A DNA stretch of 13,700 nucleotides from assembly GCA_049599895.1 (NCBI GenBank), contig JBMYPC010000084.1:1-13700 (forward strand). Reading direction: 5' to 3'. The position numbers and the translations under genes were made by a program. The notes under the pieces are model-generated. The model had not been told where the DNA came from and ran no database searches. It was given only the letters and a program-made list of their open reading frames with translations. How positions within the stretch are numbered: the first letter of the stretch is position 1; the number at the start of each line of letters is the position of its first letter. This DNA is from Bacteriovoracaceae bacterium (lineage in GTDB: Bacteria; Bdellovibrionota; Bacteriovoracia; Bacteriovoracales; Bacteriovoracaceae). Shown piece after piece: positions 1-13,510 of this stretch.

Positions 1-217
1 TCATCTCTTTTGAAGTGACTCTTTGACCATCCACAAATTCAAACTTAATTTTAGCTCGATCAAGCTCCTCTTTGATATAGGGGCCACCACCATGAACGAT
101 TAAGATTTTAAAATGAGGATAGTTCTTTTGAACTGAGGTTATATCTTTAGAAAATCTTCTAAGGTTTTCATCTTGAACAAGAAGAGATCCACCGATCTTA
201 ATAACAAGATCAAACAT
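1..217 (-). CDS. argB: Acetylglutamate kinase, N-terminal part (runs off the window edge; missing from the ORF track)
   Basis: Manual translation of the minus strand from ATG at 217 gives MFDLVIKIGGSLL...KILIVHGGGPYIKEELDRAKIKFEFVDGQRVTSKEM. It carries the NAGK signatures KxGG, VHGGGP and FxxGxRVT. It starts 2 nt after the argJ stop. Confidence 0.93.
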   Translation of the reverse strand, partial: MFDLVIKIGGSLLVQDENLRRFSKDITSVQKNYPHFKILIVHGGGPYIKEELDRAKIKFEFVDGQRVTSKEM

Positions 218-219
218 TT

Positions 220-1419
220 TTAATTATACTCGGTATTGATATCAACATACTTCTTTGTCAGATCACATCCCCAAGCGGTTGCTTCATAATCACCAGATTT
301 GAAATCAACATTAACTTCAATATGATCATCACCAAGACTTGTTCGAACTTCATAAAAGTCGAGAGGCTCCATCTCGCCTTCTTTTAAAATTGATATCCCT
401 TGAATGCTAAGGTTCATGGTTTCAAGGATTTCCTTTGGAGCTCCAAATTGACCAAGTCTTGAATAAATTCTTCCCCAGTTTGGATCTCCACCATGAATTG
501 CCGTTTTGACTAAGGGACTTGTTACCAGAGATCTTGCAAGTTCCTTAGCAAGGCATTGTTTAGGAGCTCCTTTAAGCTTCACTTCAATAAGTTTGCTCGC
601 TCCTTCTCCATCGGCGGCAATGCTTTTTGCCATATGGGTCGCAAGATCAAGAAGGGCCACCATAAACAAGTTTTTATCTTGGTCGTTAACGATTTCAACT
701 TCACTTGCACCATTGGCCATCATAAAAACAGTATCATTGGGACTTGTTTCTCCGTCGACACTGATCATATTAAAAGATTTTTCGACAACTTCTTTTAACC
801 AACTTTGCATAAGAGTGAGATCAAGAGAAACATCAGTTGCAATATAACCAAGCATGGTCGCCATATTGGGATGAATCATGCCTGATCCCTTGCAGATTCC
901 TGTCAGACGAATCTCTCCTTCACTTAAATTCACCGTCGTGGTAAACGCCTTTGGCACAAGGTCTGTTGTCATAATTGCTGTCGCAAATCTTTCAGCCGAT
1001 TTTCCCTTATTATTCACAAGATCAGGGATCGCCCTTTCAATTTTTTCAATAGCAAGAGGCATTCCAATCACACCTGTGGATGCCGTCGCAATTTGACTCG
1101 GAGTGAGTTTCATCTCCATGGCAAGAGCATGAACCATTCGAAGATTGTCCTCCGCTCCCTTAGGACCTGTTGCCGTATTGGCCTGTCCTGAATTTGTAAT
1201 AATGGCCTGAAGGTTGTCTGTAGGAAGAACTTCTTGGCAATACTGAATATGATGAGATTGAGCTGTATTTTTTGTGTAAACAGCCGCCGCTTTCGCAGGA
1301 TACTTACTATAAAGAACTCCTAAGTCTGGTCTATATTTTCGAATACCAGCATTAATACTGAAGCTTCGAAAGCCTTTTGGTAATGGGGTTTTACGTGTTC
1401 CAGGTCCAGGGATAATCAT
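220..1419 (-). CDS. argJ: Ornithine acetyltransferase / N-acetylglutamate synthase ArgJ
   Basis: Motifs NSGQAN, STGVIG, IMTTD, KGSGMIHPNMATML (autoproteolysis site with Thr nucleophile), DGEGA and DPNWGRI, with C-terminal GCDLT..YV.IN..Y. Start placed at ATG 1419 because TAAGGA (1431-1426) lies 6 nt upstream; the ORF track uses TTG at 1425. Confidence 0.96.
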   Translation of the reverse strand: MIIPGPGTRKTPLPKGFRSFSINAGIRKYRPDLGVLYSKYPAKAAAVYTKNTAQSHHIQYCQEVLPTDNLQAIITNSGQANTATGPKGAEDNLRMVHALAMEMKLTPSQIATASTGVIGMPLAIEKIERAIPDLVNNKGKSAERFATAIMTTDLVPKAFTTTVNLSEGEIRLTGICKGSGMIHPNMATMLGYIATDVSLDLTLMQSWLKEVVEKSFNMISVDGETSPNDTVFMMANGASEVEIVNDQDKNLFMVALLDLATHMAKSIAADGEGASKLIEVKLKGAPKQCLAKELARSLVTSPLVKTAIHGGDPNWGRIYSRLGQFGAPKEILETMNLSIQGISILKEGEMEPLDFYEVRTSLGDDHIEVNVDFKSGDYEATAWGCDLTKKYVDINTEYN

Positions 1420-1428
1420 TATCAATCC

Positions 1429-2463
1429 TTAAAGTAATCCTGTTGAGAGAGGTAACTGAAAATAGCGATTGGCATTTTCAATAGCTTGAGAAGCAGCTCC
1501 TTTTCTTAAATTATCAATTTGAGAAAAGAGAATCAGACGATCTTCAATCTCAGTGAAACTCATTCGACATTTTGAAGTATTTTGAATTTTTTTAAGAGAG
1601 AGATATGAAGCCTGCTTTTGAGGTTCGTCGTTGAGATTAATAACTTCAACCAGGTTATAAGAAGCATAAGTTTCTTTAAGACAACTTGAAATATTATCAA
1701 TTGTTATCCCCTCTTTTTTCTTAGCATAAATAGAAGCCAAAATTCCTCTTTCAATGGGAACTAAGGTTGTCGTAAAAGTAAAAGAAGCTGGCCTTCCTGA
1801 AAAATGCTCGAGGTATCTTTTAATCTCTGGAGTGTGTTGATGATGACCGATTTTATAAGGAAGAAGGTTTCCGCCTATTTCATTAAAATGTGTGGAGTCC
1901 TTTGGTGTTCTTCCAGCTCCAGATGTTCCTGACTTTGCATCTATAATAATATTTTCAGTCTCAATTAAATCGTTTTTTAAAAGGGGGATTAAAGGCAGAA
2001 GGCTTGCCGTCGGATAACAACCAGGGTTTGAAATAAAGTTGCCTGAAATTTCAGTTTGAAACGGAGAAAGTCCATAAACATTAGGATTCACTCGGCTGTC
2101 ACTTGTATGATCGAGGCCATAATATTTCTTTGATTCTTCTTTTGAAAGTCTAAAGGCTCCAGAAAGATCCACTAAACAGCCCTTAAAAAACAAACCTATT
2201 TTTTCAACTGTTTTAAACGATTGCCCTGCAGTTTGGGCCATAAAAATTAAGTCAATCTCACTTTGGACTTTAAGAAGTTCTTCAAAGTCAAGGGTCTTGG
2301 GAATTGAATCCTCTAAAAGATTAAGGTCATCACTTAACTTCCAATCTTTATTAGAAGAAGTGACATATTGAAGATCAAACTCTGGATGATTTTGAAGAAG
2401 CTTACAAAGCTCTAATCCCGAATATCCTCTTGCCCCAATAACGGCGACAGACTTTTTGGTCAT
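1429..2463 (-). CDS. argC: N-acetyl-gamma-glutamyl-phosphate reductase
   Basis: Rossmann motif IGARGYSG, catalytic NPGCYPTA, DAKSGTSGAGR, HQHTPEI and DNLRKGAASQA; sits in the arg cluster. Confidence 0.96.
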   Translation of the reverse strand: MTKKSVAVIGARGYSGLELCKLLQNHPEFDLQYVTSSNKDWKLSDDLNLLEDSIPKTLDFEELLKVQSEIDLIFMAQTAGQSFKTVEKIGLFFKGCLVDLSGAFRLSKEESKKYYGLDHTSDSRVNPNVYGLSPFQTEISGNFISNPGCYPTASLLPLIPLLKNDLIETENIIIDAKSGTSGAGRTPKDSTHFNEIGGNLLPYKIGHHQHTPEIKRYLEHFSGRPASFTFTTTLVPIERGILASIYAKKKEGITIDNISSCLKETYASYNLVEVINLNDEPQKQASYLSLKKIQNTSKCRMSFTEIEDRLILFSQIDNLRKGAASQAIENANRYFQLPLSTGLL

Positions 2464-2559
2464 AGTAAACCCACCCTAATACTTAACGCTAACAAGTCGA
2501 AAATATTCTGGGTAGAAAGAAATGATTAGAATTTTATTAGAACCCTATTCTGTGCTCTA

Positions 2560-3744
2560 TTATAATGATGTGAAAAACTTCTCTGTCTGATCAATCGCCT
2601 TTTCAAGAGACTCATCACTAATAAGAAGAGACGGTGCAAGTCTCAAAGCTCTTGCCCCAGCAGTTCCCCAAACAAGTCCATAATCGAGCATTTTAATAGC
2701 GCATTCTCGAGGGACATAAGGCCCATGAAGTTCAATTCCATACCATAGTCCAAGACCTCGAAAGTCTTTTACAACCTTAGGAAACTTTTCTTTTAAACCT
2801 TGAAGTTTAGAAATTAAAAACTTCTCGCGATCCTTAACATTTTGGCTTGCATTTGATTTTTTTAGAGTTGTGATAACAGTATTACCAACTTCACAAGCCA
2901 ATGCATTGCCACCAAAAGTCGTTCCATGCATTCCTGGCTCAATCACATCACTTAACTCTTCAGAACAAAGCATCGCTCCTACGGGAAATCCATTACCAAC
3001 ACTTTTAGCCGTAGTAACCACATCTGGCTTCAAATTAAAATTTTGATAACTCCAAAACTTTCCTGTCCGAAAAGCTCCTCCTTGAATTTCATCACAAACA
3101 AGAAGGGCCCCGTGCTCATCACACTTCTTTTGAATTGCCTCGAGAAAACTTTCTTCAAGTGGAACAAGCCCTCCCTCTCCTTGAACAACTTCGATAAAGA
3201 TCCCGGCAACATCTTTTCCAAACTTTTTATCGAGATCTTCAATGTCATTAGGATGCACATGATCAACCCAAGAAAGAAGATCTCCCAGTTGATCCTTTCC
3301 TTTATTCTGTCCAGTGAGACAAAGACTTCCAATACTTCGTCCGTGGAAACTTTGCCTTAAGGCCAAAACTTTTGATTTACCATTTTGTCTTTTATGGGAC
3401 CAAAACTTACAAAGTTTTAAAGCCGCTTCATTGGCCTCGGTTCCTGAATTACAAAAGAAAACTCGATTGAGCTTTTCATCGCCATCTTCTCTTGAATAAT
3501 CAATGAGGTTTTTTGCAAACTTCTCTTGCCAAGGACTTTTAAAAATATTTGAAATATGCATCAAGGTTTTAGATTGCTCTTCAATCGTTTTTGAAACTTC
3601 TGGATGGCAATGCCCTAAACTTAGAACAGCAATCCCACCAAGAAGGTCGATATATTCTTTGTCTTCAACATCATAGAGAAACTCTCCTTTTCCTCTTACG
3701 AAATCGACGGGAAACGGTCTATAGTTGGGATAGACATGACTCAT
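2560..3744 (-). CDS. argD: Acetylornithine aminotransferase (class III PLP-dependent)
   Basis: Motifs GIAVLSLGH, NSGTEANE, SFHGR, EVVQGEGG, DEIQ, TAKSVGNGFP (PLP lysine) and HGTTFGGN. SD CAGGAG upstream of the ATG; first gene of the arg cluster. Confidence 0.93.
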   Translation of the reverse strand: MSHVYPNYRPFPVDFVRGKGEFLYDVEDKEYIDLLGGIAVLSLGHCHPEVSKTIEEQSKTLMHISNIFKSPWQEKFAKNLIDYSREDGDEKLNRVFFCNSGTEANEAALKLCKFWSHKRQNGKSKVLALRQSFHGRSIGSLCLTGQNKGKDQLGDLLSWVDHVHPNDIEDLDKKFGKDVAGIFIEVVQGEGGLVPLEESFLEAIQKKCDEHGALLVCDEIQGGAFRTGKFWSYQNFNLKPDVVTTAKSVGNGFPVGAMLCSEELSDVIEPGMHGTTFGGNALACEVGNTVITTLKKSNASQNVKDREKFLISKLQGLKEKFPKVVKDFRGLGLWYGIELHGPYVPRECAIKMLDYGLVWGTAGARALRLAPSLLISDESLEKAIDQTEKFFTSL

Positions 3745-3809
3745 ACAGCACTCCTGAAAAAAATTTGTCTCTATGATAGCGTAATGACATGCATTTAGAT
3801 ACGAGAACC

Positions 3810-3838
3810 TTGACTGAGATCTTCGAAAAATCTACCAT
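3810..3838 (+). promoter_or_regulatory. Sigma70-type promoter for the dCMP deaminase gene (probably leaderless transcript)
   Basis: TTGACT (3810-3815), 17-nt spacer, TACCAT (3833-3838). The ATG at 3845 follows 6 nt later and there is no SD sequence. Confidence 0.6.
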
Positions 3839-3844
3839 TCATCC

Positions 3845-4405
3845 ATGAACGCTGACGTAAACTATATTAATGTAAAAAGCTCTCTCAGTTGGGACGAGTA
3901 CTTCATGCTGCAAGCAATGCTAGCAAGCTTTAAAAGTAAAGACCCTGTAACTAAAGTGGGTTGCGTCTTTGTTGATGAAAACAATCACCAGATCACAATG
4001 GGTTATAACGGCTTTGTCGCTGGAATTGATGAATCTCAGCTTCCCTGGGGAAAAGACAGCTCTGTTCCTCTCGAACATCAAAAGTATGGTTACGTTGTTC
4101 ACGCAGAGGCCAACGCAATACTCCATTCACCGAGAAGTCTTGTGGGATCAAGACTTTACGTGACACTCTTTCCCTGCCATGAATGTGCAAAGCTTATCGC
4201 CAGCTCGAAAGTATCTGAAGTCGTCTACCTCTACGATAAATATGAGGGTAGTTCATCAAATCAGATCTCTCGAAAAATTTTCGAACTCACCGGCATAAAA
4301 TACCGAAAACTCGATATGCCGACAGATTTGTTGGAGAAACTTCAAGACTACCTCGACATTCTTGTAACTACGCCAGAAATGCCATTAAATAATTCTGGTC
4401 TTTAG
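3845..4405 (+). CDS. dCMP deaminase family protein (ComEB/DCTD-like)
   Basis: Motifs WDEYFM, SKDPxTKVGC, GYNGF, and zinc-binding HAEANA and PCHEC; single domain of 186 aa. Confidence 0.92.
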   Translation: MNADVNYINVKSSLSWDEYFMLQAMLASFKSKDPVTKVGCVFVDENNHQITMGYNGFVAGIDESQLPWGKDSSVPLEHQKYGYVVHAEANAILHSPRSLVGSRLYVTLFPCHECAKLIASSKVSEVVYLYDKYEGSSSNQISRKIFELTGIKYRKLDMPTDLLEKLQDYLDILVTTPEMPLNNSGL

Positions 4406-4489
4406 TTCACTTTTATCTTTTTTGACTTAGAGCTTCTCTAGTAAAATCCTTATGTCTCATTAACACCTACCTTATCAAGGAGTGCCTCA

Positions 4490-5437
4490 GTGCCCCATAA
4501 AATCTTAGTTGCCGATGGTTTTCATAAAGAACTTTTTAAAGAACTCACTACAGTTGATGGATTTGATGTTCATCCTGAAGCGAAAGTTTCTCAAGACGAT
4601 CTTCCTACTCTTTTAAAAGACGTAGAAGCTCTTGTGATTCGATCAGCAACAACTGTTAATAAAAACCTTCTTGAAGCTGCGACAAACTTAAAACTTGTTA
4701 TCCGCGCTGGAGAAGGAACTGATAATATCGACAAAGCTCTTTGTGAATCAAAAAGTATTGCAGTTGAAAATACTCCTGGAGCAAATAATAACTCTGCGGC
4801 TGAACATGCTGTGGCCCTTATGATGTCTGTTTTAAGACATACCCCCAATGCTTCAAGCACAATGACAAATGGAGGTTGGGATAAATCAAAGTTTGTTGGA
4901 AATGAACTTTGGAAAAAGAAAGTTGGAATCGTAGGCTTTGGAAGAATCGGACAGATTGTCGCTAAAAGAATTTCAGGTTTTGAACCAGAGACTTTCTTTT
5001 TTGATCCTTTTGTTAGTGTTAGTCCAAGCCCTGACTATACAAAAGTTAATGACCTTGAAGAGATTTTTAAAACTTGTGACATCGTGACGATCCACACTCC
5101 TCTTCTTCCTCAAACGAAAAACCTTATCACTAAAGATCTTCTTGAAAAAATGCCAAAACATGCTGTTTTAATCAACGCTGCTCGTGGTGGAATTGTTAAT
5201 GAAGCGGATCTGATCTCAGTCCTTAAAGAAGGAAAGATTAAAGCCGCTGGTGTTGATGTCTTTGAACAAGAACCAACCACTGAAGACAACGAGCTTAGAA
5301 AGCTTTCAAATGTTGTCTGTACTCCTCACCTTGGGGCAAGTACTGAAGAAGCTCAGCTTCGCGTTGGTGAAATGGTGATTCATCAATTAAAAGAGTTTTT
5401 TAACAACAACAATGTTGTCAACGCTGTTAAAGCATAA
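4490..5437 (+). CDS. serA: D-3-phosphoglycerate dehydrogenase-like D-2-hydroxyacid dehydrogenase, short form without ACT domain
   Basis: Motifs LVIRSAT, RAGEGTDNID, NTPGAN, GIVGFGRIG, INAARGG, DVFEQEP and TPHLGASTEEAQ. GTG start with SD AAGGAG at 4477-4482. Substrate specificity is not provable from the sequence. Confidence 0.8.
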   Translation: MPHKILVADGFHKELFKELTTVDGFDVHPEAKVSQDDLPTLLKDVEALVIRSATTVNKNLLEAATNLKLVIRAGEGTDNIDKALCESKSIAVENTPGANNNSAAEHAVALMMSVLRHTPNASSTMTNGGWDKSKFVGNELWKKKVGIVGFGRIGQIVAKRISGFEPETFFFDPFVSVSPSPDYTKVNDLEEIFKTCDIVTIHTPLLPQTKNLITKDLLEKMPKHAVLINAARGGIVNEADLISVLKEGKIKAAGVDVFEQEPTTEDNELRKLSNVVCTPHLGASTEEAQLRVGEMVIHQLKEFFNNNNVVNAVKA

Positions 5438-5445
5438 GGATTAAA

Positions 5446-6720
5446 ATGAAGTCATTAGCAATCATCGGTTCGCAATGGGGAGATGAAGGTAAAGGAAAGA
5501 TCACAGATTTGATTGGGCAAAGATCAGATCTTGTCGTTCGCTATCAAGGTGGCAACAATGCTGGCCACACGATTATCGTAGACGATAAAAAAACTGTTCT
5601 TCACTTAATCCCTTCAGGCATTCTTCACGACCATGTTCTTTCAGTTATTGGACATGGAGTTGTTTTTGATCCCGGAGCCTTTGTTAATGAACTTAATGGT
5701 GTAAAAGAATCAGGAGTAAAAGTCACTCCAGAAAAACTTCTCATCTCTGGTCACTGTACAATCATTACTCCTTACAACAAAATTCTTGATGCCGCTCGAG
5801 AGTCTCAAGGACCTATCAAGATCGGAACAACAGGAAAAGGAATTGGACCTGCTTACGAAGACAAGGTTTCAAGAAAAGCAGTCAAACTCATTGATCTTCT
5901 CGATTATGATCGCCTTGTGAAAAAGCTTGATCAGAACATTATTGAAAAGAAAGTTCTTCTAGAAAAACTCTATCAAGTGGATTGTCCTAGTGTTGAAAGT
6001 GTTGCCAAAGAACTTTTTGAAGTTGGAAAACAAATAAAAGAATTTGTTGGCGATTCATTCAGCGTTATTGACCGTGCGATTCTCGCAAACAAAAAGATCC
6101 TCTTTGAAGGGGCACAGGGAGTTCTTCTCGACATCGACTATGGATCATACCCTTTTGTGACTTCATCAAATACATCTTTTGGTGGGATCTACACAGGAGC
6201 GGGAATTCCAGGAAGCCAAATCGATGAAGTTTTAGGAATCACTAAAGCCTATACAACTCGTGTTGGGAGTGGGCCATTTCCTTGCGAACTTGAAACACCT
6301 ATTGGAGAACATATTCAACAAAAGGGTGGTGAATTCGGAGCGACGACAGGTAGAAAAAGACGCTGTGGTTGGCTTGACCTTCCTCTTCTTAAGTACACAG
6401 TGAAAGCCTCAAACCTCACTTCACTTGCTCTCACAAAACTTGATATTCTTTCAGATCTTCCGGAACTTAAAGTTTGCACAGGCTATAAAACCATAACTGG
6501 TGACGTGGTTGATTGTGCTTACCCAGGACTGGACCTTTCTGAAGTTGAACCTATTTACCAAGAAATGACTCCATTTACTGATGACTTCAAAACCGAGGAT
6601 CTCAGTCAAGAACTAAAGAACTTCATCGGAAAAGTAGAGGAATTCGTCAATGTTCCAGTGGGAATTCTCGCTTACGGCCCTGAAAGAAAGCAAATTCAGT
6701 TTAGAAAAGACTATTTTTAA
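5446..6720 (+). CDS. purA: Adenylosuccinate synthetase
   Basis: Motifs GSQWGDEGKGK, RYQGGNNAGHT, GTTGKGIGPAY, FEGAQG, YPFVTSS, GATTGRKRRCGWLD and TKLDIL. SD TAAGGA overlaps the upstream stop codon. Confidence 0.98.
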   Translation: MKSLAIIGSQWGDEGKGKITDLIGQRSDLVVRYQGGNNAGHTIIVDDKKTVLHLIPSGILHDHVLSVIGHGVVFDPGAFVNELNGVKESGVKVTPEKLLISGHCTIITPYNKILDAARESQGPIKIGTTGKGIGPAYEDKVSRKAVKLIDLLDYDRLVKKLDQNIIEKKVLLEKLYQVDCPSVESVAKELFEVGKQIKEFVGDSFSVIDRAILANKKILFEGAQGVLLDIDYGSYPFVTSSNTSFGGIYTGAGIPGSQIDEVLGITKAYTTRVGSGPFPCELETPIGEHIQQKGGEFGATTGRKRRCGWLDLPLLKYTVKASNLTSLALTKLDILSDLPELKVCTGYKTITGDVVDCAYPGLDLSEVEPIYQEMTPFTDDFKTEDLSQELKNFIGKVEEFVNVPVGILAYGPERKQIQFRKDYF

Positions 6721-6803: not shown

Positions 6804-9800
6804 ATGAAACGATTTTTTGAATCTCTATTCTTTTCCTCTATCTTGTTTTTGCTTCAAGCAACAGCTTATCCCCAAACGCAAAACTCTCAAGTTCATTTAA
6901 GTGAAAGACTTCAACTACTTCCAAGTTTTCTTGCTTCAGGAAGTATGAGCCGAGACGATCTTACCGCTCACCTTAATGGTCTAAAAGAAAATAAAAACCT
7001 TTTAACTGATCAAAAGTCTCTCTCGGCGCTGGATGCTCTTACCAATCTTTCCAACAAAGCAAAGAATCTTGAAGAATGTCTCGATCGTTATCAAAAACAA
7101 GATCCTAAGTTTTACAAAAAAGATCACATAATCTCTCAGTTTCTTGCTGGTTACGCAGATGATATCGTCGACTGCTTTCAAACAAGCGATCCCCTCGCAG
7201 GGATTCAAGATCTTGAAAGAGATATTAATGTCGTGGCCTTTCGCTTAAAACAGCCACCAGAAATGTCAAAAGATGAACTGCAAAAGCTTTCAGAAGAACT
7301 CTATGAAAGGCAAAAGAAAAAGCTTTTCTATACCAACTTCACAATGCTTGGAGACCTTGGAAAAGAATTCAAGCCAAGAGACATTGACTGGCTTAAAGAA
7401 AATTTCTTTGGAAAAGACTCTAAACATGATGCTCGAAAGGATCAGAGCTTTCTTCAAATCGCTTCTGAGTTTGCTGAGAACTATGAGGCAACTCTGAAAC
7501 GCTTAGGAGAAACAGATTCTGAATCTCATCGAAAGAAACAAAGAAAAAAACATTTTGCTCAAACAAGGCAGCAATTCAAAGATTATAGAGCGAGCAGACT
7601 TACTCTCAATGAACAAAATTATAAACTAAGAAATCGAATTCGATTTCTCGAGGTATTGCCAGAACTTCCCAATTTTGATTTTCCAAAACCTCCTATTTCA
7701 ACGATTATTGGTAAGCCTATCCATGCGAGAAAACCTGTTTTTAGAATCGTCCCTAAGGACATAGATCAAGGAAAAGTCCTATATGATTATCTCGCAAAAG
7801 GTAAAGAACCAGATGGTTGGACTCTTCTTGCTTCTGAAAAGCCAAAAACGTTAGGCGAAATGGCGGCAAGACTCTCAGCTGCAAAGTCTTCACTTAACTC
7901 TGCCTTTCAAGATGAAACACCTGGAGAAAACTCTGATCGACTCGATCTCATTGGTTTTACAGTTGATGACCTCTTTGAACAAGCGATTGTCAGTCAGATG
8001 AAAGTCAATAAAACAAGACGAGACCTTCTTTCAAATCCAGTTGCTCTAGGTTCGCTGGGATCACGCTATACAGTGAAGAAGAATCAAACAAATTCCATTG
8101 GAGAGAGTTTTGGAAATCTTTTTGGTATTTATACAGCGAGTGAAGGTGATGCCATTGTGGACAACGATGAACAAAAACTTATCGCTCTTCCCAGACAAAC
8201 AGATCAAGACTTTGATCGCTATTTAGGAGTCTATCAAGAATCAGTTCAAAAACTTGTTGAGGAAATGGAGAAATGGAAAGAAAAAGAAAAGCATATTAAC
8301 ACTCTAGACCCTAAAGGAAAGAAACATCACGAAGATTTTATAAAAAATATGCTTTATGCAAACCCTGAACTAGCCGGGGAATACTTAGCCGACAATCCAC
8401 ACATGGCCCCTTATCTTTGTGACATTGCAGTGAAAGCTCACCAGGAAAAAGATAAGGATAAAGAAAACTCACTCTTTTGGAAGAAAGTTGCAACCTGGGG
8501 AACTATTGCCGCAGGAGCTTTATTGTTAGCGGCCACTCTTGCAACCGGGGGATTAGCTCTATTGGGAATGGGAGCAATTGGTAGTTATAGCCTTGCAACT
8601 ATTGGAGTAGGACTGACTGCCGGTAGTTTTGCACTTGGAGCAGTCTCTGGGACGATAGCCTTGCGAGAAGGTTTTAACTTTAGTGAAGAAGCCGATCTTT
8701 TGGAAGCAAGATTGGTTGCTTATGGAGTTGGAGATCCAAAAGAAATTGCAGATCTCGTCAAACAAGCAAGGCAGTCTTATTGGACTGCTGCCGCCGACCT
8801 TTTACTTGCTCCAATTGATGGCGTTCAATTTTTTAAAAGCTTTAAACAGATCCGATCGATGAAGAAGCTTAAAGAGATGGCCAATGCAAGTCCTGATGAT
8901 ATCGCAAAGATTTTATCAAAAGAAAAGGCTTTGCAGACAAACACAGGGGAAAAAACTAAGAGAAACCCTCAAGTTGTTCAAAGCTCACAAGGCCCATTAA
9001 ATGGCCCATCCGGATCGACTTATAAGGCCAAGCCAATGATGGAAGTGACTGACGGAGGGACTCCTGTTCGTCAGTATGATGCTGAAAATGTCCATTATCT
9101 TAAAGAAAACCAAAAAGACATGTGGAAAGCTTATGTCGACAAAGAGGGACGCTTCACAAGAGCAAGTGGAAAACCTTTTCAATGTGATAACTGCATCTAT
9201 GTCATGGATACTAATGGAGAGCTCTATGTCTTTAAAGATGGTGGAAAATTTAATGGCATGGCCCATTCATCCTTTCTCAGCGGAGATCCTGTTGCAGGGG
9301 CAGGACATATGACAATTGATGAAAATGGCTTTTTGAAAATGATTAATAATAATTCAGGTCATTATAAGCCAGAAAAGATTTATCTTGATCAAGTCGAATC
9401 AGAACTCAAAAAAAGAGGCGCTAATTTAGATTCAACAGATATCGTTGTCACCTTTGATGAGTCCGTGACATCAGCGAGAAATTACGAACATCCCGATGAC
9501 GTTTTAGTACTTTCACAAAAAGTAAGACTTTCAAACAATGTTGATTTAAGTGCTTTTGCCCCCGAAACAAGACAACTTTTTAGAGAAGATGGTGTCTTAG
9601 ACTTTCAAAACCATCAAGCGCTCCTCTTTTATGAAGAAGGAATTCCAAGAGGAAACTTCACAGATGCTGCCCAATCCTATGGTATCAAGGTTGCGGGTCA
9701 AAAACCAATTATTAAAGCTCTTACCAGTCGTGAGAATTACCTTAAAAACAAAGCCGATACATTACTTCAAAAGTTTAAAGAGCCAAATCTCTCCCCTTCT

Positions 9801-12200
9801 GAAAAACTGAACATTCAAGAAGAGTTAAAAGATATCGCAACTGAGCAACAGTTTTACTCAGAAGCATTAGAATACTCTTCTCCAGAAAGGGCCTTTAAAA
9901 GTGGAAAGATCGGAATCATTGAATTTTGGGATAACAAAGTTGGAATACCTTTAACTAAAGTTCCAGAAGTCCAAGTTAAACAAGCAGATACTCTCACCAT
10001 TTTACGTTCCGATGATGCAAACTCAAGCTTCGAAGGTTTCTCCCTATCATTAAGAAGAGAGAGCAATACACCTTTTATTAAATTTACAGAAGCCCAAAAG
10101 AACTCATTTCAAGACATTCATAAAAAATATCAACAAGCAGGGCTGAACTCACAAGATGATGTTCTCAAACTCAAAAACGATTTAAGTTCCGCTGGATTTA
10201 GACAAGATCAAGTTGATTTCGCTGTTCACGGTGGTTATTTTGGAGAACTTCCAAAAAAGACACCCCCTCTTGACTTAATCACAGGGTCCACTCCAAAACT
10301 CAAGTCACAATTAGAAGAACTTGATGAGATTAAATATACAGAAAAAAATCCAAAAGATATGGACCCAAAAGAACGAGAAGACTTTAAAATAGTCGAAAAG
10401 GTAAAGACTAACAAAGCCGGAACGATTGCCAAAGCAAAGGACAGTCTTTCCCATCTTCCTGATGGCGATTACCTCTTTGTCATTGATCAATCTGGAAATC
10501 TCGCCTATTCCAATCGCTACATCAACCCACCAGAAGTCGAACTTGTTAAGCACCCTGCTCTTGTCAACTCTCTCAAAGAGATAAACCCTGATCCAAAAGT
10601 TATTGCAGCAGGGGAATTTCAGATTAAAGATGGAAAAGTTTATTTTATTAACAATAAGTCTGGTCACTACATGGGTGGAGCAGAGAGCTTTCAATTTGCA
10701 ATAAACAGACTTGAAGCTAGTGGGTTACCGAAAAGCCCTAATCGTATTGAAATGGACCTTTCCAAACTTGATCCAGAAGTAAGAAAAGAAATGAGTAATC
10801 ATACACTTGAAGGACGTGCAACACTTCTTTTTCGCGAAGTTGCGCAAGCTCCAGCAACTGTACAGAATCAAATTGAAGAAAGTGCACTTGCATACAACTC
10901 AGTACTTAATCGACTGTCAAAAATGTATCCCAATGTTGAAAAGCCCGTTGAGCAGATCTATAAGTTTTTCGATGATGCTTTCGAAGCGGATGAAGACCTT
11001 TCATTTGCGGCAATGACATTTTTTAACACACTTGGTTCAGAAGGCATGAACCCTCAAATTATGGCAGCAAAATCGTACGCTGACTTACTCGATACAAGAA
11101 TTGATATTCAAAACGGAGCAATTCGCCAAAGTGAAATTGACCACAAACTCAATGTCGACCGATCAAGAGCAGAAAATCAAGTCGAATCGATTAATGAAAG
11201 CATCGATCCCTTAACAACTCTGGTAGGAAAAGTTGAGGCCACTAAACTTAATAAGACCTTAGAAGACGCTGGAATAACATCAAAAATTATAGAAACAGAT
11301 AAGGGCTTTGTCCTCGAAGTTGACCCTAAAACAATTCCTTCTTTAAATGATTTTCTAAAATCCCAAGGCCATGACTCCCATCAATTTAAAGTTTTCTATG
11401 ACCCCCAATATTACTCAGAAAACCGTGATGTTCTAGGTTCTTTAAAACCAAATGGCGATATCTATTTAAACTATTCAGTACTTGATAAACTTGCAAGAGG
11501 CGAGACACCAATGACTCCTTTTCACGAGCTTCGCCACCTTTCAAGAAGCCTTAATCGAAACCTTGGAAAAACTGACGATATGGATGTTCATTATGAGAGC
11601 CTTCTAAAAAAAGAAACACGAAATCCCTACGAGAATATTGTTGACGGAGAAGAGCTTGCAACCTTTACTCAAGACATCAGTCGTTTCCCATTTGAAATCA
11701 ATGACTCTAGATCAATTCAAGCGATGGCCTTCCGTATAGAAACAATTGGGAACACGATTAAAGACTTCTCTTCTGATAGTATCTCTCATTTGCGAAAGCT
11801 CAATTCAGAAATTAAAGAGACAACAGACATTGGGAAGTTTCTCGATAAGAACTTGAAATTTAACTTGAAGCAAAAAGACCCTCCTCACCTTCTCTCTTTC
11901 GAAACAAATAACTCTAAGATTAATATCTTTTTAAGCCAAAAAGAATTTCAAAAATTAAAAAGTTTAGAAGACATTGAGTTTTTGGGTAATCAAAAAGAGG
12001 GTATTAAAGAGTTAAGAAGCTTTATAAGTAGTATCCTTAACAAGCAAATTAGCCTCAATACAAAAAGTGTTCAAGCGTCGCAAAGAGCCCAGGATATTAC
12101 CTATGTTGCCTCTCAATATAGTGATAAGCCCAACCCTGAGCAAGCGAGCAACCTTCGAAAAATTATCAAAGAACTCCAAGAATTAATTGGGGGGCATTAA
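6804..12200 (+). CDS. Large secreted multidomain protein, putative polymorphic toxin/effector (signal peptide, hydrophobic segment, two H...NxSGHY domains, HExxH module)
   Basis: Uninterrupted 1798-codon ORF. Signal peptide-like N-terminus MKRFFESLFFSSILFLLQATAYP; uncharged Gly/Ala-rich stretch at aa ~562-620; repeated motif set at aa ~760-875 and ~1176-1308; FHELRH at aa 1573-1578. The coding call is firm, the functional call is inference. Confidence 0.7.
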   Translation: MKRFFESLFFSSILFLLQATAYPQTQNSQVHLSERLQLLPSFLASGSMSRDDLTAHLNGLKENKNLLTDQKSLSALDALTNLSNKAKNLEECLDRYQKQDPKFYKKDHIISQFLAGYADDIVDCFQTSDPLAGIQDLERDINVVAFRLKQPPEMSKDELQKLSEELYERQKKKLFYTNFTMLGDLGKEFKPRDIDWLKENFFGKDSKHDARKDQSFLQIASEFAENYEATLKRLGETDSESHRKKQRKKHFAQTRQQFKDYRASRLTLNEQNYKLRNRIRFLEVLPELPNFDFPKPPISTIIGKPIHARKPVFRIVPKDIDQGKVLYDYLAKGKEPDGWTLLASEKPKTLGEMAARLSAAKSSLNSAFQDETPGENSDRLDLIGFTVDDLFEQAIVSQMKVNKTRRDLLSNPVALGSLGSRYTVKKNQTNSIGESFGNLFGIYTASEGDAIVDNDEQKLIALPRQTDQDFDRYLGVYQESVQKLVEEMEKWKEKEKHINTLDPKGKKHHEDFIKNMLYANPELAGEYLADNPHMAPYLCDIAVKAHQEKDKDKENSLFWKKVATWGTIAAGALLLAATLATGGLALLGMGAIGSYSLATIGVGLTAGSFALGAVSGTIALREGFNFSEEADLLEARLVAYGVGDPKEIADLVKQARQSYWTAAADLLLAPIDGVQFFKSFKQIRSMKKLKEMANASPDDIAKILSKEKALQTNTGEKTKRNPQVVQSSQGPLNGPSGSTYKAKPMMEVTDGGTPVRQYDAENVHYLKENQKDMWKAYVDKEGRFTRASGKPFQCDNCIYVMDTNGELYVFKDGGKFNGMAHSSFLSGDPVAGAGHMTIDENGFLKMINNNSGHYKPEKIYLDQVESELKKRGANLDSTDIVVTFDESVTSARNYEHPDDVLVLSQKVRLSNNVDLSAFAPETRQLFREDGVLDFQNHQALLFYEEGIPRGNFTDAAQSYGIKVAGQKPIIKALTSRENYLKNKADTLLQKFKEPNLSPSEKLNIQEELKDIATEQQFYSEALEYSSPERAFKSGKIGIIEFWDNKVGIPLTKVPEVQVKQADTLTILRSDDANSSFEGFSLSLRRESNTPFIKFTEAQKNSFQDIHKKYQQAGLNSQDDVLKLKNDLSSAGFRQDQVDFAVHGGYFGELPKKTPPLDLITGSTPKLKSQLEELDEIKYTEKNPKDMDPKEREDFKIVEKVKTNKAGTIAKAKDSLSHLPDGDYLFVIDQSGNLAYSNRYINPPEVELVKHPALVNSLKEINPDPKVIAAGEFQIKDGKVYFINNKSGHYMGGAESFQFAINRLEASGLPKSPNRIEMDLSKLDPEVRKEMSNHTLEGRATLLFREVAQAPATVQNQIEESALAYNSVLNRLSKMYPNVEKPVEQIYKFFDDAFEADEDLSFAAMTFFNTLGSEGMNPQIMAAKSYADLLDTRIDIQNGAIRQSEIDHKLNVDRSRAENQVESINESIDPLTTLVGKVEATKLNKTLEDAGITSKIIETDKGFVLEVDPKTIPSLNDFLKSQGHDSHQFKVFYDPQYYSENRDVLGSLKPNGDIYLNYSVLDKLARGETPMTPFHELRHLSRSLNRNLGKTDDMDVHYESLLKKETRNPYENIVDGEELATFTQDISRFPFEINDSRSIQAMAFRIETIGNTIKDFSSDSISHLRKLNSEIKETTDIGKFLDKNLKFNLKQKDPPHLLSFETNNSKINIFLSQKEFQKLKSLEDIEFLGNQKEGIKELRSFISSILNKQISLNTKSVQASQRAQDITYVASQYSDKPNPEQASNLRKIIKELQELIGGH

Positions 12201-13510
12201 ATCTGCCCTAAAAGAATTCCCTCTCGAGAAGAGATTAACTCAACTTCGTGAATCTGATTATGAAGCTCTAGGTCTGTTTCAACCTGAACCTTAAGGTAAT
12301 TCGTCGTATAGCCTTCAAAAAGACCTTTTTTATTTCTCTTTTCAAAAAGAACTTGATTGAAATTCCCAACTTGATCTTTTGCAAAATCAGATAATTTCTT
12401 AGCACCAAGTTCATTCAATGCCTTCACACGTTCTTTTTTAAGTCCATGTTGAATCTGATCTTCAAGTCTTGCCGCAGTGGTATTTTTTCTTTTTGAAAAA
12501 GGAAATACATGAAAATGAGTTAAAGGCGATGAACTCAAGAAGTCATAAGTCTCTTGGAACTGCTTCTCAGTCTCACCAGGATAGCCAACAATAACATCCG
12601 CTCCGATCCCACAATTGGGAAACTTAGAAGTCACCATCGAAATGATGTCTTGATATTGCTCAATTCGATACTTTCTTCGCATGGAAGTTAAAATTTCATT
12701 GGAAGCACTCTGAAGTGGGATATGGAAATGGTCCATGGTTTTTGGACTGTCTTTTAAGACTTTTAAAAGCTCAGGCGTAATCGTATTAGGTTCAACACTT
12801 GAAAGCCTTAATCTCTCAAGTCCCTCAAGATCGAGAACTCGCTTTACTAGCTCTTCGAGCTTTTGCCCTGATGTTGAAGCATATTCTCCAATATTCACAC
12901 CGGTGAGAACGATTTCTTTATAACCCTGAGAAAGAATTTCTTTAGCCGTATTGACCGCTTCACTGATTTCGATTGTCCGGCTTCGCCCTCTGGCCTGAGG
13001 AATAATGCAAAATGAGCAGACATAGTTGCAGCCATCTTGAATCTTTAAGAAGGCCCTAGTCCTTGAATCCGCCGAAGTCGTCGCTGCCCCCCAAAACTCA
13101 TTGGTTTTATCCACATGAACTTGCTCAGCATCGGCTTCTTCGATGAAGTCAAAAACCTTGTACTTTTCACTAGTTCCTAGCACAAGATCAATACCCTGCA
13201 TCTTAGAAATTTCTTCTGGGCTCATTTGAGCATAGCAGCCAGCAACAACAATTTTCCCCTCAGGAGAAGCCTTGAAGGCCTTTCTAATACTATTTCTACA
13301 GGTGGAGTCAGCTCCATCGGTAACCGTACAGGTATTGATAAAAGTGACGTCTGTGGACTCTCCAAAAGGAACAACCTTGTAACCTCGCTCTACAAAGCCC
13401 TGGGCGATACTTCCCGACTCACTAAAGTTGAGCCTACAGCCCAATGTGTGAAAACTCACGGTTTTTTGGTCAGCAGATTGTGGATAAGCCTCATTACTAT
13501 CATTTTCCAT
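12197..13510 (-). CDS. mtaB: tRNA N6-threonylcarbamoyladenosine(37)-C2-methylthiotransferase (radical SAM)
   Basis: UPF0004 domain cysteines TLGCRLN, INTCTVT and AGCYAQ; radical SAM motif RTRAFLKIQDGCNYVCSFCIIP; HFHIPLQS, HVFPFSKR and GYTTNY, which are typical of MtaB rather than MiaB or RimO. Confidence 0.93.
   Translation of the reverse strand: MENDSNEAYPQSADQKTVSFHTLGCRLNFSESGSIAQGFVERGYKVVPFGESTDVTFINTCTVTDGADSTCRNSIRKAFKASPEGKIVVAGCYAQMSPEEISKMQGIDLVLGTSEKYKVFDFIEEADAEQVHVDKTNEFWGAATTSADSRTRAFLKIQDGCNYVCSFCIIPQARGRSRTIEISEAVNTAKEILSQGYKEIVLTGVNIGEYASTSGQKLEELVKRVLDLEGLERLRLSSVEPNTITPELLKVLKDSPKTMDHFHIPLQSASNEILTSMRRKYRIEQYQDIISMVTSKFPNCGIGADVIVGYPGETEKQFQETYDFLSSSPLTHFHVFPFSKRKNTTAARLEDQIQHGLKKERVKALNELGAKKLSDFAKDQVGNFNQVLFEKRNKKGLFEGYTTNYLKVQVETDLELHNQIHEVELISSREGILLGQI

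Follow-up and report, generated by a model that had tools for sequence, protein, structure and literature searches.

A Bdellovibrionota carrier family with exchangeable enzymatic tails includes a predicted Sec-exported effector of a Bacteriovoracaceae bacterium

A 13,700-nucleotide stretch of DNA from a Bacteriovoracaceae bacterium (the window) encodes a 1798-residue protein that the initial annotation had called an orphan, and this label does not hold: the gene belongs to a phylum-wide family whose amino-terminal carrier region was matched in 103 of 401 Bdellovibrionota genomes, a count that includes the host genome and six seed genomes. Members of the family share the carrier and differ in what follows it, tails have been exchanged as cassettes, residues of catalytic type are conserved within the tail domains, and one of these domains, which we designate D, also occurs on classical toxin carriers. 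The best reading is of a lineage-specific, Sec-exported, immunity-free polymorphic effector system that would be aimed at prey, in which the protein appears to work like a polymorphic toxin, yet without an immunity gene or any known trafficking domain. The gene, its modules and its neighbours are as follows.

6804..12200, plus strand: whole gene, 1798 aa, comprising carrier, D1, middle region, D2 and zinc-peptidase-like module
6804..6869, plus strand: predicted Sec signal peptide, aa 1 to about 22, without a lipobox (sequence and hydropathy)
6873..8903, plus strand: Bdellovibrionota carrier, aa 24 to about 700, predicted all-helical (profile, 103/401 genomes)
8484..8663, plus strand: Gly/Ala-rich uncharged segment, aa ~561-620, putative membrane-inserting hairpin (hydropathy, family ORFs, weak matches)
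9078..9449, plus strand: D1, aa 759-882, an unnamed H..(A)GE..N.SGHY conflict domain with H821 and S851 near-invariant
9459..10373, plus strand: middle region, aa 886-1190, no credible homologue
10380..11123, plus strand: D2, aa 1193-1326 plus a helical extension to about 1440, with R1238, H1250, E1271 and H1333 invariant
11190..12197, plus strand: zinc-peptidase-like module, aa ~1463-1798, with H1574-E-L-R-H1578 and E1616/E1617
5446..6720, plus strand: purA, housekeeping gene on the upstream side, from which the organism was placed
12197..13510, minus strand: mtaB-like radical SAM gene, convergent, overlapping the stop codon of the effector gene

The reading frame from 6804 to 12200, flanked by purA and the convergent mtaB-like gene, is intact and without internal stop codons, and the motif residues H821, H853, H1250, H1288 and H1574-E1575-x-x-H1578 lie at the positions originally assigned to them. 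Kyte-Doolittle hydropathy (window of 19) exceeds 1.2 only at the amino terminus and in windows starting at residues 561 to 602, in agreement with the proposed signal peptide and uncharged Gly/Ala segment; on sequence and hydropathy the amino terminus is predicted to be a Sec signal peptide. No Pfam or NCBIfam family matches the 1798-residue protein at cut-off and nothing among PDB sequences falls below E 0.15, and thus the Rhs, PAAR, LXG, haemagglutinin and RTX repeats that the first inspection had failed to see were not detected here either. The gene is single-copy in its own genome, with no paralogue found by tblastn.

A Bdellovibrionota-like host had been suspected, and PurA is indeed 66-67% identical to three Bacteriovoracaceae records, whereas the remaining 77 records listed reach 51% at most. 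The whole stretch is covered with zero differences by a single contig of a seawater run (X1), which is possibly the source of the DNA; among the runs listed as containing the stretch there was no RNA run, and a marine run from another study (X2) contains identical short pieces of the 5' and 3' parts, unjoined. The modules have GC3 values of 0.27-0.33 against 0.25-0.36 for the neighbouring genes, and their GC content is likewise within the neighbours' range, and composition thus gives no hint of recent import. Neither a promoter-like nor a terminator-like site was found between 6500 and 7000. No effector homologue adjoins purA at two other purA loci (L009 and L010), and at a third (L011) the sole trace is a weak D-like fragment lying 7 kb upstream. 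We note that the minus strand of the window at 2-3744 carries an arginine-biosynthesis cluster (argD, argC, argJ and argB-like, named from their translations) in this predator-family genome, and that the same genome encodes several giant lipoprotein-like ORFs of 1700-3700 aa (C17:9855-20999, C102, C65 and others).

The carrier and peptidase families surfaced only through genome searches; a word-index search with carrier residues 24-700 among proteins of 988-3147 aa recovered the query alone, and the first genome search found the carrier in 7 of 41 genomes (again counting the host and six seed genomes) before the profile extended it across the phylum. Conserved positions in a 60-row alignment include C92 (59/60), C124 (59/60), P521 (60/60), P532 (59/60) and C539 (60/60), and the carrier bears an NP..P..C motif followed by a hairpin of GGxLxxTGxGA type. 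Among 67 5'-complete carrier-family ORFs, a set that includes the effector gene itself and two duplicates, 60 have a hydrophobic amino terminus, 63 have a nearly uncharged stretch of at least 35 residues, and none has a lipobox pattern. In some homologues a Lys-rich stretch comes after a third hydrophobic helix. Cargo-free members are common, many of them ending soon after the hairpin (514-760 aa), while the extended members examined reach 1888 aa. At one locus (L232, genome G097) a cargo-free carrier ORF (2375-4042) is followed after a gap of 225 nt by a D-domain ORF (4267-4686) without a signal-peptide-like start, a split carrier-plus-D arrangement.

An AlphaFold model of the carrier (692 aa) is all-helical with a pLDDT of 60.5 and low confidence over the hairpin; this low-confidence model has no match in the PDB by Foldseek at E 0.001 and none to a ClyA, colicin or translocator fold, and its VIA matches (Z up to 9.3) were discarded as generic helical bundles. 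An ESM Atlas search with one short carrier returned PT-TG at 0.85, which we treat as a lead only. The segment at aa ~561-620 is a putative membrane-inserting hairpin. It matches SmhB (E 1.6e-4), NheB, Ssp4 and an RTX amino terminus weakly (E 1.6e-4 to 5e-3), and these matches to pore-forming toxins are below cut-off, composition-prone and may reflect composition. The likeness to ClyA-family B components (SmhB, NheB) and to the RTX pore-forming amino terminus thus lies in weak profile matches to the hairpin only; unlike those proteins, the carrier is without a fold match, no A or C partner genes are seen, and enzyme tails are attached.

It had been proposed that homologues might share this amino terminus and carry different carboxy-terminal domains, and such homologues were found: carriers either end or append different enzymes, in open frames of up to 1896 aa, so that the architecture is variable, and the His and Glu residues of the tail domains are conserved. 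Forty long open frames were picked from the carrier matches and, together with earlier loci, gave 43 extended members that were scanned; ten have recognisable cargo, several of the assignments falling below family cut-off, and 33 have tails without annotation. The cargos are PP2C (L132), metallophosphoesterase (L134 and L147), PRTase (L148), a PARP-like (ART-like) domain (L163), a SCO1664/PI-kinase-like domain (L129 and L143), papain (L138), an HExxH Mx1-like peptidase (L137) and the D domain (L131). L137 and L138 share 84% identity across aa 1-676 but not their tails, which are unrelated (HExxH Mx1-like in the former, papain in the latter), and both adjoin a RecG gene, with 97% identity between the two RecG proteins; this is a cassette swap. 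The L139/L140 alignment stops at about aa 880, and L146 and L158 have flanking genes in common and rearranged tails. Not every pair of carriers has swapped, since L161 and L162 are alike end to end and L089 and L108 align over most of their length. Many of the cargos require ATP, NAD+, PRPP or phosphoproteins, and these cytoplasm-type cargos sit on proteins with signal-peptide-like starts.

A helical module of about 65 aa, AH..G...NYT..QL..K..IL..AGF, recurs in twelve tails (L134, L139, L140, L144, L145, L148, L152, L154, L156, L157, L159 and L163), directly after the carrier or between cargos, and is a candidate pre-cargo or recombination unit. Residues 1089-1148 of the effector's middle region resemble it weakly (6.8 bits, exceeded by 1 of 1000 shuffles); the four weak matches to the middle region in 400 genomes were all unrelated proteins on inspection. 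By eye, the unannotated tail of L142:1754-6019 may resemble PcfJ-like plus leucine-rich repeats, and the carboxy termini of L119 and L163 small nuclease-type toxin ends.

The two His-His toxin-like domains recognised at the outset are real as modules, but D1 and D2 prove to be one family (cross-HMM scores of 55-57 bits). Across 244 distinct D copies, from part of which the conservation profile was built, 235/237 conserve the first His, 226/243 the SGHY serine (S851) and 217/243 the second His; however, none of 13 D2-subfamily relatives keeps the second His, these having R1238, E1271 and H1333 in common instead, and a His-His pair is therefore not the defining signature. Residues 737-1333, searched against 1.84 billion representatives, had 2095 matches, of which the best 150 listed match D1 or D2. 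In 50 matches that were Pfam-scanned, D occurs on TPS/haemagglutinin (CdiA-type), WXG100, eCIS-core, T9SS and PT-HINT proteins, and D proteins often have 2-6 D copies together with other toxin domains (glutamine deamidase, ART). On a Nocardia plasmid, D is the carboxy-terminal domain of a 502-aa protein encoded after two WXG100 genes and before a 195-aa gene, by analogy a classical toxin-immunity layout. Within the Bdellovibrionota, D was found in 64 of 301 genomes, mostly within short proteins, and 27 of 29 distinct 5'-complete D proteins have a hydrophobic start. Metagenome locus scans for D yielded no relatives, and an ESM Atlas search with D1 returned hypothetical clusters only. We also note that an unnamed viral protein (BFVD entry G8DGH9) matches the D1 model by Foldseek at E 1.6e-5, the single BFVD match, and that the D1 motif seems to us to resemble the core of plant IQM (IQ-motif-containing) proteins.

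The D1 model suggests what D might do. The best fold match of the D1 model (pLDDT 86.9), in two VIA runs, is human PHPT1 (2nmm), a weak match (Z 5.0, under the level that VIA calls reliable; rmsd 3.2; 84 of 113 residues aligned) that is nonetheless the sole chain at Z of at least 5 among 48,161, the next scoring 3.6. Accounts of PHPT1 give His53 as the general base (PMC11277029) and Ser94, with backbone amides, as binding phosphate (PMC4817053). Counted from the start of the aligned range, H821 and S851 stand at 46 and 76 residues in D1, and His53 and Ser94 at 41 and 82 in PHPT1; the correspondence of H821 to His53 and S851 to Ser94 is suggestive only, its register coming from the aligned ranges and not from a residue-level superposition. 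The same is true of the link as a whole, since Z is middling and neither Foldseek nor any sequence profile joins the families: Foldseek against the PDB with the D1 model gave nothing under E 0.15, PF05005 was in none of 78 members (among 25 families listed) and had no match in the host genome at E 10, and the D profiles recover no PHPT1 chain. D may thus recall PHPT1/Janus-Ocnus (PF05005) proteins in the fold of D1 and in the active-site loops of His53 and Ser94, which H821 and S851 would echo, and differs in having no sequence-level match and in its setting: PHPT1 is a cytosolic enzyme of eukaryotes, D a conflict domain that is exported and often present 2-6 times in one protein. D1 and D2 are likely phosphohydrolase domains, and a PHPT1-like hydrolysis of phosphohistidine, on two-component kinases and the PTS, may be their activity.

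Should the effector be delivered as we propose, it is nearly an even question whether D1 and D2 are instead nucleases, or other enzymes that cleave phosphodiesters or NAD, whose fold is similar only on the surface, a conditional alternative that does not add to those considered below. A Z of only 5.0 leaves room for it, DarT scores Z 2.7 against the D1 model, and the conserved H853, Y854, E1271 and H1333 are without a tested PHPT1 counterpart; the solitary position of PHPT1 among the chains compared and the coverage of 84 of 113 residues argue the other way, as do the invariant His and near-invariant Ser, whose positions, judged from the ranges, appear to fit His53 and Ser94.

The carboxy-terminal module was matched in 35 of 401 Bdellovibrionota genomes, and HExxH together with a Glu about 40 residues on (matching E1617) is kept in 24 of 24 non-seed loci, among 30 returned. 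This retention, like that of the first His of D, shows the motifs to exceed chance. E1616 or E1617 would be the third zinc ligand, at gluzincin-type spacing, and the module represents a conserved Bdellovibrionota zinc-peptidase-like family for which proteolysis is predicted. It is like the gluzincin-type metallopeptidases in its HExxH and downstream Glu, the Tox-MPTase domains being, we presume, the apt comparison, and unlike them in having no Pfam, NCBIfam or PDB sequence match; a word-index search with aa 1450-1798 among proteins of 191-611 aa found nothing. The module also stands alone behind signal-peptide-like starts and on a second carrier. This second Bdellovibrionota carrier type (L167-L177, P0097), unrelated to the first, has a signal peptide, several cysteines and a C..G.W.S motif and bears the same peptidase or D modules; in P0097 D precedes the peptidase, the order seen in the effector gene.

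No small gene lies 3' of the effector gene; the minus-strand mtaB-like gene overlaps its stop codon and leaves no room for an adjacent immunity gene. The gene following 39 long carriers is on the opposite strand in 29 cases, small and on the same strand in six, large and on the same strand in three, and absent in one, and no common small gene family was found downstream of these 39; a shared neighbouring immunity gene is absent from the carrier family. Only one small partner recurs, a gene for a J-domain protein whose start is signal-peptide-like, behind six short carriers (L093:6062-6730, L117:2421-3053, and downstream in L122-L125). Such a start is unusual because the DnaK partners of J-domain proteins are cytoplasmic, and the exported-looking protein might either target prey DnaK or serve the carrier as a chaperone.

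The effector system is like the polymorphic toxins (CdiA, Rhs, LXG/WXG100, MafB) in joining a conserved amino-terminal region, which in those toxins serves trafficking, to exchangeable carboxy-terminal enzymes, and in having D in common with CdiA-, WXG100-, eCIS-, T9SS- and HINT-type proteins. It differs in several respects: none of the trafficking domains in Pfam or NCBIfam matches the carrier, several modules follow one another, the family is without a conserved adjacent immunity gene, short cargo-free members are common, and the carrier is found in the Bdellovibrionota (the phylum covered by the genome-wide search). A hydrophobic hairpin ahead of an enzymatic tail is also, as we understand it, a feature of Tse6 and of prePAAR-Rhs proteins with Eag chaperones, to which the J-domain gene behind short carriers, as a possible chaperone partner, offers a parallel; unlike these, the effector has a signal peptide and not PAAR or VgrG, the window is without a chaperone gene, and TssC was not found in the host genome (97% complete). 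The earlier description of a poorly described Sec-exported effector of cassette type is supported by the common carrier with differing tails, Sec export itself being predicted.

On balance we think it probable that the Sec-exported carrier inserts its hairpin in a prey membrane and that the tail enzymes reach and disable prey proteins. The effector would be exported by Sec and then pass the outer membrane, perhaps through the type II secretin (GspD is above cut-off in the host genome, hrcV below it); the hairpin would insert into the prey membrane and the tail be translocated; and the two likely phosphohydrolase domains and the predicted zinc protease of the tail would act on prey proteins, D hydrolysing phosphohistidine of two-component kinases and the PTS and the peptidase cleaving prey proteins. 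If the protein leaves the producer unfolded, with cytoplasmic targets out of its reach, an immunity gene would be unnecessary. Against this explanation stand the many cargo-free members, the 33 of 43 tails without annotation, and the six of 39 long carriers with a small same-strand gene downstream. A stronger version, in which the carrier is a self-contained device that, with neither a T3SS nor a T6SS, passes enzymes over the prey inner membrane, and D is a bacterial PHPT1-fold toxin that dephosphorylates prey histidine kinases and the PTS, we regard as unlikely. In the literature covered, mostly open-access and judged largely from search results, we found no description of the carrier or of a PHPT1-fold toxin domain; the supplements of large toxin-domain surveys lie outside that scope and could hold either under another name. 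Other secreted Bdellovibrionota effectors are proposed in PMC12419801, in the accessible part of which the carrier family is unmentioned.

The main rival holds that the protein stays in the producer's own membrane as a periplasmic helical sensor or anchor with two or three membrane helices, its tails acting on the cell's own signalling or on imported prey material. We consider this unlikely, even though an immunity gene would then be unnecessary, several cargos are of signalling type (PP2C, kinase-like, phosphoesterase), and a third hydrophobic helix and Lys-rich stretch occur in some homologues, since D and the peptidase also stand alone behind signal-peptide-like starts, D travels on five classical toxin carriers, and rapid exchange of tails at one locus typifies conflict systems. 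Use as a secreted polymorphic toxin against rival predators, kin or grazing protists, and not against bacterial prey, is quite unlikely: competition is what polymorphic tails usually point to, D1 has its closest fold match in a eukaryotic enzyme, and a eukaryotic site of action is conceivable for the papain, PARP-like and PI-kinase-like cargos, but kin-directed toxins need immunity genes, none of which is conserved, and the family also has members in Bdellovibrio, which is known to prey on Gram-negative bacteria. A structural surface or envelope protein (adhesin, S-layer or TolA-like), as the NCBI name 'tolA protein' on three short members and the long helical amino terminus might suggest, is highly improbable given that the short members scanned (L122 and L090) have, like the 1798-aa protein, no Pfam match to the TolA/TonB family, that catalytic-type residues are conserved, and that the tails are enzymatic and swapped.

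Each of the three short Bdellovibrio carriers that bear this name is followed by a J-domain-family gene, and the predatosome table for strain HD100 lists Bd0676, 'tolA protein', adjoining Bd0677, 'protein with DnaJ domain' (PMC2797640). By name and gene order, not by alignment, Bd0676-Bd0677 appears to be the HD100 carrier member and its partner; a search for the two tags returned only that paper as concerning Bdellovibrio, by title. The values tabulated for Bd0676 are 0.91-0.92-fold on prey entry and 0.25-0.29-fold in host-independent (prey-free) growth (PMC2797640), and the lack of induction on prey entry, for a gene linked by name and order, counts against the explanation based on delivery into prey, whereas the roughly fourfold drop in prey-free growth counts for it. 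According to the same source, Bdellovibrio depends on Sec for the secretion of degradative enzymes that are to reach the prey cytoplasm, a compartment kept apart from the predator (PMC2797640).

For the crossing of the prey inner membrane, a carrier that occurs across the phylum and exchanges enzymes of cytoplasmic type offers a concrete candidate. We know of no established answer to how secreted Bdellovibrio enzymes accomplish this, and the family has an apparent member in the genetically tractable HD100, Bd0676-Bd0677. If the stronger version were true, D would silence prey signalling and sugar uptake, and if D is a PHPT1-fold enzyme it would represent a new toxin chemistry spread over many secretion systems. 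The carrier family, with 33 of 43 extended tails unannotated, is in addition a source of undescribed enzymes.
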